A DNA stretch of 38,480 nucleotides from a virus (lineage: Duplodnaviria; Heunggongvirae; Uroviricota; Caudoviricetes), in the IMG/VR virus record IMGVR_UViG_2718218396_000012; one strand, written 5' to 3'. The position numbers were made by a program. How positions within the stretch are numbered: the first letter of the stretch is position 1; each line of letters starts with the position of its first letter. Below, one piece after another: positions 30,001-33,000 of the stretch.

Positions 30001-33000
30001 GATGCCCCCATCGAACGCTTTCGCTGTAACACCAAAGCAACCATGCTTTCTGATGTTCATCGAGAGACAAAACCGCGCGGCGCCATGAAGAGGTTGAGAA
30101 TTCAACCGGGCTGACCAAAGCAATGGATGAACCTTTTGCGTACGACTGCTTACCGGAAGTCGGCGTATTATCCAGCGTAATCATCTTGCCAGTTACCACA
30201 TCCAGAATGCGCGGCTTCTTTCGTTTGTATGTACCAGTATCAAATTGTGCATGCTCCTGCCAGGCTTCGAGCTGGCCTTTCGTTGCTCCGTTCAAGTCAG
30301 CAGTAGCTGCCATAAGTTGCTCACGAACATACTGTAAATATTGGGTATTCATGCAGTAAATCCTTTCTATATTTTGGCATAATTCTTCAACATTCGGTAA
30401 TCGTTCAAAACCGAATCGGGGAAACGACATAAGCACAGGAGCCCCCAGCGACAGCGAAGGAGTTCTGATATATAAGACTCAGACATCATTCATTCCCCGG
30501 TTCTCCAATATCTGTTTCACTCATCATCCATAACTACCTGTAATTGCCCCCCCTTTTTTTGTAACAGTTCTTATATTGCTATATAGAATAGCCATTACTA
30601 ATGCATTTAAATTTAATAAAATAAAATTATAAAAAACATAAAACACCACGCAAACACACTTAATAAAAACACCGTTACATTAAAAGATAATAAAAACCGC
30701 AATAAAAAACGAATAAATCAATTGTCTCACGCAATTATAAAACATCATATTGATTACGCACCTTGCATTACAAACTCATGTATGTAAAATACGCGCACCA
30801 TTCAAAAAAAAGGAAGACAATAACATATGAAAAAAAGTGTCATCGCTGGCGTCTTTATTGCTCTGTCATTTACCACGTGTTCAGCTATCGCGAACAGCCT
30901 TGCATTATCATTAGCAAATGATGATGCAGGGAAGTTTCAACCAATACTTAATGATATTTATGGCAATAAACATGAAAACAGAGATGATTACTCACAAGGC
31001 TTATTTCTGGGATATAGCCACGATATCTCAGACTCGAGCCAATTATCTCTCCATATTGCGCAAGATATTTACTCTCCATCAGGCAGTAATAAAAGACACA
31101 ACACAGCTGTAACTGGAGACAGAGCTTTTAGTGCATACACTCACACTGGTATTGAATGGAACTCCCTTGCGAATGACTGGATTCGCTATCGATTAGGTAC
31201 TGACATAGGTGTTGTTGGCCCCGACGCAGGCGGTCAGAAAGTACAAAATAAAGCTCATGAGATTATTGGGGCAGAAAAATATCATGCATGGGATGATCAA
31301 ATAGAGAATCGCTACGGTTATACTGTAAAAGGGATGCTATCCATGACACCAAGTATGGATATTTTAGGTGCTAATGTTGGATTATACCCTGAAGTTTCTG
31401 CTGTTACTGGAAACTTATTTCAATATGTAGCATATGGCGCAACCATTGCCATTGGTAATGATAAAACCTTCAATTCGGATAATGGCTTTGGTCTGCTGGC
31501 TCCCCGTGGTTTAATGCATATGTCCGATACAAGCGGATTCAAATACAAGATTTTTGCAGGTATGGAAAGACGAGATGTCAATCGCAACTATACTCTCGAA
31601 GGAAAAACAATACAGACGAAACAAACAACAGTATCGCTAAACAAAACTGTTGATGAATATCAAGTTGGCGCAACAATTGGGTATGCACCTGTAGCCTTCA
31701 CACTAGCATTTAATAAAGTAACATCAGAATTCAAGACAGGGGATGACTATTCATTTATAAATGGAGCAATCACCTTCTTTTTTTAACTGAATTGAATTCA
31801 ATCAAAATAACATAAGTCCAACAAAAACATAAAGTGCGAAATGAATGCCAGCTCCATTTATTTCGCACTATAAAAGATTAAAAGTTGCAATAAAATAATA
31901 AAATGACTCAGTTACGAAAACCAATAAACTGTGGCCAGTAGTGAGTCGCTCATCATCGGGCTTTTTGGCGAATGAAATTTAGCTACGCTTTCGAGTCTCA
32001 TGCGCCTTCTCCCTGTACCTGAATCAATGTGAGGTTTCCGCAGAACACTGCGCCAGTATAGATATACATCTGGTTGGCAAATTTGAGTGGTTTCACTGCT
32101 GGCGTATGACCAAAGATGAACGTGTCCGCGCCTTTGATTTCTTTCACGATCCCGTCTTGTGAGTTGCTGATTCGTTCGCGGTTCCAGATTACCTGCTGAT
32201 GATCAACTGGCTTTCCAAACTCGTATTTATCACAAGGATAATCGGCGTGGCAGATGACATATTTTTTTCCTTTACTCACCAGTTCGATGATTAACGGAAG
32301 TTCATCTGCTTTATGGGCAAGAGCTTTAGCCAGAATTTCTTTGTCGTAATCGAGATTAAAGAACCAGCCACCGCCATTAAGCAGCCAGTGATTGACGTTT
32401 CCACGCTCTGATAAGCCATCAATCATCATTTGCTCATGGTTTCCACGTACAGCTCTGAACCAGGGGAATGTGATTAATTCCAGGCATTCTACGTTCTCTG
32501 TACCGCGATCAACCAAATCGCCCACCGAGATAAGCAGGTCTTTTTTGGTGTCGAATCCTATCGTCTCCAGTTTTTTCATCAGGTTCGTGTAGCATCCGTG
32601 CAGATCGCCAACTACCCAAATATTTCGGTATTTGCTGCCATCAATTCTTTCGTAGATATTCATGCAACCTCACTTCTGCTGTTTCGCAGTTTTTTAAGTT
32701 TCTGTTGATACTCCGCCTTGATGGCCCTGCACTCTTCGACAGTCCAGCGATAGCGGTTATGGTTTGATTCGATTTCCTCTACTGCTTCCTGCCCGATGCG
32801 GCTAATCAGTTCGACGCGATACGGAACGAGATTTCCGCTTTTGTGCTGGTTGCACACCACGCATTGCTTGTGAATATTGCGTTCATCAAATCGGAGTTGA
32901 GGTGCCGCAGCAGTTGTCCGGTAATGTCCGGCATCCCACTGAGCAGACGTGAGCGTTCCGCACGAGATACATGGTAAGTCGCGGTCTCTTTCTCTGATGA

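Follow-up and report, generated by a model that had tools for sequence, protein, structure and literature searches.

The window analysed here is the whole 38,480-nt stretch of phage DNA (Caudoviricetes) held as IMG/VR virus record IMGVR_UViG_2718218396_000012, and its subject is lpxR, the gene of the outer-membrane lipid A 3'-O-deacylase LpxR. The coding sequence (CDS) lies at 30827..31786 of the plus strand (319 aa, coordinates including the stop codon), and its identification is supported by the open reading frame (ORF), the match to Pfam family PF09982, the alignment to the solved structure of the Salmonella enzyme (PDB 3FID) and the annotation of the corresponding genes in RefSeq and in the phage 434 record, both of which name a lipid A deacylase of the LpxR family. 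The gene is antisense to all nearby phage genes, with Q, the lysis genes and the head and tail genes on the minus strand. On its upstream side lie a small ORF of the YlcG family (30367..30489, minus strand; 40 aa; NCBIfam NF033498, 48 bits with the cut-off at 30), annotated in RefSeq and in phage 434 and part of the Q82-type module, and then the Q82-type late antiterminator itself (29663..30436, minus strand; Pfam PF06323 Phage_antiter_Q, E 1.7e-91), whose longest ORF opens at a GTG at 30436 and for which RefSeq and phage 434 use the ATG at 30352. On the downstream side, the insert that holds lpxR is flanked by a backbone gene, that of a NinI-type serine/threonine phosphatase (31998..32663, minus strand; Pfam Metallophos, E 4e-17; likewise annotated in RefSeq and phage 434), and beyond it by ninG (32660..33283, minus strand).

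By every feature examined, the gene belongs fully to the LpxR family and has its active site intact, as far as sequence can tell. The 319-aa protein matches the Pfam LpxR profile with an E-value of 6.8e-40 (137.4 bits, with the gathering score at 26) over profile positions 2-320 of 323, and it matches Salmonella LpxR with an E-value of 3.6e-153, residues 24-319 aligning to residues 2-296 of 3FID with a single one-residue gap and with identity at 220 of the 295 aligned positions (74.6%), over the whole mature length. The position-by-position map derived from this alignment relates the two numberings by a constant offset, mature numbers being precursor numbers minus 22. Eight positions of the Salmonella active site are identical in the window protein: N9 (N31 in the precursor), D10 (D32), D11 (D33), K67 (K89), Q118 (Q140), H122 (H144), E128 (E150) and Y130 (Y152). 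The sole active-site difference, one on which the first-pass annotation is silent, is at the Ca2+ ligand T34, which is a serine here (S56). This substitution is conservative, and Yersinia enterocolitica, which also encodes lpxR, likewise has serine at this position. Across an alignment of 14 family members, extending down to 50% identity, there is no variation at N9, D10, D11, K67, Q118, H122 or Y130, whereas position 128 alternates between Glu and Asp and position 34 between Thr and Ser. As for their functions, described also in PMC6863877, the summary that PMC6260217 gives of Rutten et al. 2009 assigns the roles of a general base (H122), of a residue proposed to orient it (E128), of Ca2+ ligands (N9, D10 and T34) and of a substrate contact (K67). 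The LpxR of enterohaemorrhagic Escherichia coli (EHEC) has itself been modelled on 3FID, with N31, D32, S56, Q140, H144 and E150 listed as active-site residues (PMC6863877). An inactive LpxR-like pseudoenzyme was considered and rejected, as all catalytic residues are conserved. The 22-aa N-terminal extension (MKKSVIAGVFIALSFTTCSAIA, encoded at 30827..30892, plus strand) is predicted from its sequence to be a Sec signal peptide cleaved after AIA; a KK n-region, a hydrophobic core and an AxA site can be read directly, and residue 24 aligns with mature residue 2 of 3FID.

The surroundings of the gene identify it as prophage cargo. A search of a phage collection places the end of homology to phage 82 (Q82 plus orf45/ylcG) at window position 30498, and shows DNA homology to lambda, at 95.9%, and to its relatives only from 31931 onward, where it covers the 3' end of ninI and the first 20 codons of a lambda-type Q. 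These two breaks thus delimit an insert of 1432 bp (30499..31930) between phage backbone genes, with 35.8% GC against 49.8% for the window. The truncated Q (31915..32001, minus strand) retains 20 codons, which we take to be identical to the N-terminus of lambda Q, followed by unrelated sequence and a stop codon; RefSeq annotates it as an incomplete 'antitermination protein' and the phage 434 record as an 'antiterminator-like protein, N-terminal fragment'. Judged from these homologies, the insert sits exactly at the scar left where the ylcG/Q82-type module replaced a lambda-type Q. A discrete insert with sharp homology breaks and deviant composition makes lpxR a prophage cargo gene, or moron. 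The first-pass annotation of this DNA, made from the sequence alone, had described a 319-aa LpxR-like outer-membrane protein with N9, D10, K67, H122 and E128 at the catalytic positions, and had presented its gene as phage cargo placed opposite the late genes between a phosphatase and a Q-like gene. All of this is borne out: the five residues are identical in the alignment to the Salmonella enzyme, NinI and Q82 flank the gene, and the insert boundaries, the Q remnant and the low GC content agree with a cargo cassette. The arrangement resembles that of the bor and lom morons of lambda, in which the gene of an outer-membrane protein of foreign composition likewise lies between phage genes, benefits the host and is expressed independently of the lytic programme. 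It differs from them in that bor and lom are found in the tail or lysis region, whereas lpxR occupies a Q-gene replacement scar and encodes a lipid A enzyme.

The host prophage can be named. The whole window matches the genome of E. coli O157:H7 FRIK944 at 99.98%, save for a 1309-bp insertion of the IS3 family (24280..25588). This insertion sequence (IS), absent from the FRIK944 prophage, contains two overlapping transposase ORFs (HTH_Tnp_1, rve), and an ALIL frameshift pseudoknot (25137..25253, 121 bits) lies within it. The prophage is O-island 36 (OI#36), or CP-933K, of E. coli O157:H7, and the gene is Z0955 of EDL933 and ECs0814 of Sakai (PMC3891560, PMC4699771). Comparison with the EHEC O157:H7 gene revealed no difference: gene and prophage context, with nleB2, nleC, nleH1 and nleD, are the same. 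These four effector genes lie at one end of the prophage and a frameshifted integrase at the other. In the interior, a bet remnant that has lost its N-terminus abuts ninE divergently (~33400..34400), and the immunity region, N, O/P and the ninB region are missing; since bet adjoins ninE, the immunity and replication region has been lost. The corresponding RefSeq entry annotates the integrase, the terminase and gpJ as frameshifted or interrupted. On this sequence evidence the prophage is defective, and yet lpxR and the four nle effector genes remain intact. Taken together, the window gene is almost certainly the known EHEC lpxR, carried as cargo by a defective lambdoid prophage along with nleB2, nleC, nleH1 and nleD.

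The lpxR CDS is present in 643 of 5426 complete E. coli genomes, with at least 99% identity in 620, including O157:H7, O145:H28, O111:H8 and O103, with 80-90% identity in 20 and with about 72% in 3; the same search counted 20 plasmid-borne copies. The 1.8-kb region around the gene is 100% identical in hundreds of O157:H7 genomes. In a published survey, 97% of 224 EHEC genomes carried lpxR, whose product was also tried as a vaccine antigen (PMC6863877). The one plasmid copy inspected, on pJNE23-011 (NZ_AP045068.1; lpxR at 5001..5960 of locus L065), has 80.8% DNA identity to the window gene and lies amid IS remnants, near a gene for an M91 zinc metallopeptidase.

Divergent variants occur in other settings. 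On E. coli contigs L061 and L062 a variant with 85% protein identity (gene at 4001..4960) lies 1.8 kb from cdtABC (cytolethal distending toxin) and beside an IS. It shares with the window only 30754..31966, a segment that begins with the 73 bp nearest the gene on its upstream side, continues through lpxR and the spacer downstream of it, and takes in 36 bp of the Q remnant; this extent of sharing implies descent from the same Q-scar insert. A 70% variant resides in another lambdoid prophage, on a contig that also encodes a Q protein, a DUF1737 protein and a DNA methylase. A protein scan of genome contigs by exact peptide patterns, which miss Salmonella, returned one locus (Citrobacter, 73%). 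Two of the closest known systems, those of Salmonella and Y. enterocolitica, are chromosomal. Salmonella Typhimurium LpxR (3FID) likewise has 319 aa, with 74.6% mature identity, the same N9, D10, D11, K67, Q118, H122, E128 and Y130, and T34 where the E. coli protein has serine. Its gene, however, is flanked by thrS/infC and by pfkB, away from any phage genes, and its DNA likeness to the window is confined to the CDS. Like the EHEC gene, it is tied to the regulator of a type III secretion system, and it is repressed by H-NS (PMC5122947); the activators differ, being HilD in Salmonella and Pch and Ler in E. coli. The LpxR of Y. enterocolitica is 69% identical and resembles the window protein in its serine at position 34; 3'-O-deacylation by it is held to account for the tetra-acyl lipid A of that species at 37 C (PMC3486919). 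Its gene is also chromosomal, and it is under temperature, PhoPQ and RovA control (PMC4651636), as opposed to Ler and Pch in EHEC.

In phage 434, CPT_434_65, an 'outer membrane beta-barrel lipid A deacylase' (OL657226), lies in the same insert at 99.3% identity, with the same Q remnant and the same ylcG/Q82-type module. Phage 434 is complete and viable, whereas the window prophage lacks everything between bet and ninE, immunity and replication genes included, and has genes for type III effectors at the opposite end. The announcement of the phage 434 genome mentions virulence-factor morons (PMC9119081). That a viable phage, isolated from sewage and grown on K-12, holds the same module (PMC9119081), and that variants of lpxR are found in no fewer than three distinct lambdoid settings, might suggest that the gene is kept mainly for the benefit of the phage, through changes in the outer membrane or its vesicles that bear on superinfection, adsorption to debris or lysis, with immune evasion as a by-product. 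We regard this as very improbable, because every transcription unit of the phage is read in the direction opposite to the gene, because lpxR of EHEC is co-regulated with LEE, the enterocyte effacement locus, and not with prophage induction (PMC9263587), because no phage phenotype has been reported, and because a prophage devoid of its immunity and replication region still has lpxR intact.

Published work bears on the regulation and function of the EHEC gene. Ler activates Z0955, described as a 'systemic factor protein A (SfpA) homologue' of prophage OI#36, by a factor of 5, and control of ECs0814 by Ler had been seen earlier in Sakai (PMC3891560). The gene belongs to the LEE modulon (PMC9263587), and the expression of the 'LpxR homologue (Z0955)' drops together with that of LEE in yhaO and yhaJ mutants (PMC4699771). 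According to the accounts of Ogawa et al. 2018 given in PMC6393859 and PMC6863877, transcription of lpxR accompanies that of LEE genes and requires Pch and Ler, the gene confers lipid A 3'-O-deacylase activity on EHEC, with reduced deacylation in the mutant, and its loss raises NF-kB and p38 signalling and phagocytosis. A virulence-regulated promoter and a lipid A remodelling cargo relevant to immune evasion, both proposed in the first-pass annotation, thus agree with published dependence on Ler and Pch and LEE co-regulation (PMC3891560, PMC9263587, PMC6393859) and, in the same accounts of Ogawa et al., with a weaker inflammatory and phagocytic response to the bacteria that carry the gene (PMC6393859, PMC6863877).

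The older name of the protein invites a different view of its function, namely that it is a porin- or adhesin-like outer-membrane virulence factor and not an enzyme, or else an LpxR that stays latent in vivo, as the Salmonella enzyme is reported to do under standard growth. Z0955 has indeed been listed as a 'systemic factor protein A homologue' (PMC3891560), and LpxR activity is relatively low in S. Typhimurium (PMC6260217). Against this, the catalytic and Ca2+-binding residues are all conserved in a protein 75% identical to the solved enzyme, and lipid A deacylation was reduced in the EHEC lpxR mutant, according to the summary of Ogawa 2018 in PMC6863877; the literature is also said to contain 3'-O-deacylated lipid A whose formation requires this gene and H144. 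A non-enzymatic or latent LpxR is therefore exceedingly improbable. With nothing found to contradict the identification as LpxR, the identity of the gene given in the first-pass annotation was right, and yet what it had recovered was known biology.

Upstream of lpxR, a non-coding region of 337 bp (30490..30826, plus strand; 29.7% GC) is presumed to be an H-NS/Ler-responsive regulatory region. The composition of this region is extreme even for the window: the lowest-GC stretch of 337 bp in all 38.5 kb begins at 30501 (28.2%), a GC content under 30% is seen in just 0.7% of stretches of this length, the window mean is 49.9%, and 328 bp of the upstream region hold 12 runs of at least four A/T bases, where the window average would lead one to expect 3.6. 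The AT-richness claimed in the first-pass annotation, which had put the length of this DNA at about 390 bp, is thus sound and marks the window minimum, but its length is not, since the YlcG ORF occupies part of it. A stretch of 390 bp (30437..30826, 32.3% GC) is obtained only if Q begins at the GTG at 30436, whereas the RefSeq start is at 30352. Within the non-coding region, a proximal block of 73 bp (30754..30826, plus strand) is conserved with the cdtABC-linked lpxR variant and contains an AGGAAG ribosome-binding site, 9 nt before the lpxR ATG. A possible promoter in this block, TTGCAT-16-TAAAAT, was read by eye, is weak and does not appear in the output of the consensus scan. In the chromatin immunoprecipitation (ChIP-seq) data for LmvR in EDL933, the lpxR start codon has a binding summit 68 bp upstream of it (PMC10128022, Table 1), at roughly 30759 in window coordinates and hence inside the conserved block. 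Because the cdt-linked variant shares DNA from 30754 only, the distal 255 bp of AT-rich DNA are, on this comparison, specific to the present insert, and only the proximal 73 bp accompany the gene between prophage contexts.

The AT-richness of this region, the function of Ler as an H-NS antagonist and the H-NS repression of Salmonella lpxR lead us to infer, partly by analogy, that lpxR of EHEC is probably silenced by H-NS; for Salmonella, the repression is known from genome-wide data that PMC5122947 cites. A number of results lend no support to an H-NS-silenced promoter in this DNA or to a self-contained transcription unit for lpxR. The consensus promoter scan of 30300..32100 gave 5 promoter-like sites against 6.6 expected, none of them convincingly placed, and a terminator scan of the same interval gave 0 intrinsic terminators. 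The H-NS high-affinity motif TCGATAAATT, allowing at most 2 mismatches, has no match in 30490..30826 and is not enriched in the window as a whole (30 matches against 37 expected). The run of T residues of the one prominent hairpin downstream of lpxR lies on the opposite strand. Finally, no account of H-NS binding at EHEC lpxR was found in the accessible literature, including ChIP data for the locus.

From some of these results it could be argued that the AT-richness is mere foreign composition and that control is exerted by specific activators (Ler directly, LmvR, YhaJ) acting on the proximal ~70 bp, with no involvement of H-NS. The sharing of the proximal 73 bp, and not of the distal 255 bp, with the cdt-linked variant fits such an arrangement, as do the position of the LmvR summit (PMC10128022), the absence of the high-affinity motif and the fact that the CDS (39% GC) and the downstream spacer (28%) of the insert are low in GC too. 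It is well established, though, that H-NS binds AT-rich curved DNA with no strict motif, so that the high-affinity motif is not required. The excess of A/T tracts, the main role of Ler as an H-NS antagonist and the repression of Salmonella lpxR by H-NS, in the data cited in PMC5122947, also point away from composition alone, and we deem activation at the proximal block without H-NS unlikely.

The hairpin just mentioned has a 15-bp stem (31833..31869), begins 46 nt after the lpxR stop codon and was assessed by folding against shuffled sequences. Its predicted energy is -20.3 kcal/mol (z-score -3.8), equalled by 1 of 200 shuffles, its T-rich tail lies on the minus, phage-sense strand, and it belongs to the segment common to the cdt-linked variant. 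With this orientation it may terminate phage transcription that has not been antiterminated, ahead of Q82, and not the transcription of lpxR. Since the nin genes lie on one side of the hairpin and the sole intact Q gene on the other, its phage-sense T-run could make it an added terminator gating Q82.

A second RNA signal was sought in the CDS, where AATGATGATGCA (30917..30928, plus strand), which spans codons N9-D10-D11-A12, is complementary to the 5' end of the small RNA (sRNA) MicF and forms a candidate coding-sequence MicF site; the MicF sequence used was checked at the ompC-rcsD locus. RNAduplex pairs the MicF 5' end with positions +91..+102 of lpxR, and the same motif is present in Salmonella, in which MicF targets lpxR both at the ribosome-binding site and within the CDS (PMC4651636). 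The candidate sRNA target and the active-site motif thus overlap at 30917..30928, here as in Salmonella. The energy of the MicF-lpxR duplex (-13.3 kcal/mol) is no better than that of shuffled sequences, 67 of 200 doing as well. As evidence of regulation, the duplex was rejected, its energy being unremarkable and its motif fixed by the catalytic codons, and it is retained as a lead only. A search of Rfam with 30440..31990 found no known RNA family at either threshold. The combined proposal that the hairpin of the insert gates Q82 expression, and with it late-gene entry, in 434-type phages, and that MicF, a core-genome envelope-stress sRNA, controls EHEC lpxR, is a speculative one that we consider quite improbable; if it were true, phage development, envelope stress and virulence would be linked to one another through lpxR. 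To the same speculative reading belongs the possibility that K-12 lysogenic for 434 has its lipid A altered by the prophage, an instance of lysogenic conversion so far passed over.

Other features of the neighbourhood lie beyond Q82 on the minus strand, where genes for a 252-aa membrane protein and a DUF3927 protein are followed by holin and lysozyme genes. The 252-aa ORF (28736..29494, minus strand), directly downstream of Q82, encodes a multi-pass membrane protein, has ~30-35% GC and returned no match in Pfam or NCBIfam. It occupies the position in which Shiga toxin (Stx) phages carry stx and is also present in phage 434, where it is followed by a DUF3927 protein labelled TciB. Downstream of Q and of the DUF3927 gene, a sub-threshold match to the STnc100 sRNA family (28276..28481, minus strand; 37.7 bits, with the gathering score at 47; E 1e-5) covers the full length of the model and has a terminator hairpin at its end. 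In a 2026 preprint (10.64898/2026.05.13.724894), Q and LpxR serve as conserved neighbours of the prophage sRNA PasD, which is related to STnc100, and lie within 10 kb of it in more than 98% of cases; the match in the window would fit a candidate PasD. A weak match to the EHEC sRNA Esr41 (28010..28099, plus strand; 32 bits, with the gathering score at 102; E 0.003) has a terminator-like 3' end and overlaps a 132-aa ORF, hypothetical in RefSeq; hits to Esr41 are frequent near PasD (10.64898/2026.05.13.724894).

The mechanism that these data suggest can be outlined by reference to the Salmonella enzyme and to published regulation. Transcription of lpxR would start in AT-rich DNA that arrived with the gene, probably held silent by H-NS and, as published, switched on with LEE by Pch and Ler. 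With the gene antisense to the early-right and late unit of the phage, it would thus be expressed as an independent lysogenic-conversion gene. The 22-aa signal peptide would direct the export of the 319-aa precursor, and the protein would then form a 12-stranded beta-barrel in the outer membrane like that of Salmonella LpxR, as expected from its 75% identity to 3FID. There, by analogy with Salmonella, H122, backed by E128, would activate a water molecule, Ca2+ held by N9, D10 and S34 would polarise the ester, K67 would contact the 3-deoxy-D-manno-octulosonic acid (Kdo)/phosphate part of the substrate, and the 3'-acyloxyacyl group of lipid A would be hydrolysed.

The gene, its regulation and its function are already known, and their identification here adds nothing new. 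That raw sequence was enough to recognise a virulence-associated cargo gene, together with its catalytic residues and the logic of its regulation, serves instead as a positive control for this kind of reading. What is new is small: the boundaries of the insert as a Q-gene replacement scar (30499..31930), and the finding that, of the upstream DNA, the proximal 73 bp alone accompany the gene from one prophage context to another. For the bacterium that carries it, the significance of this cargo lies in the under-acylation of lipid A by LpxR, which weakens the stimulation of TLR4 and so lowers its signalling, and which EHEC turns on along with its type III secretion system.

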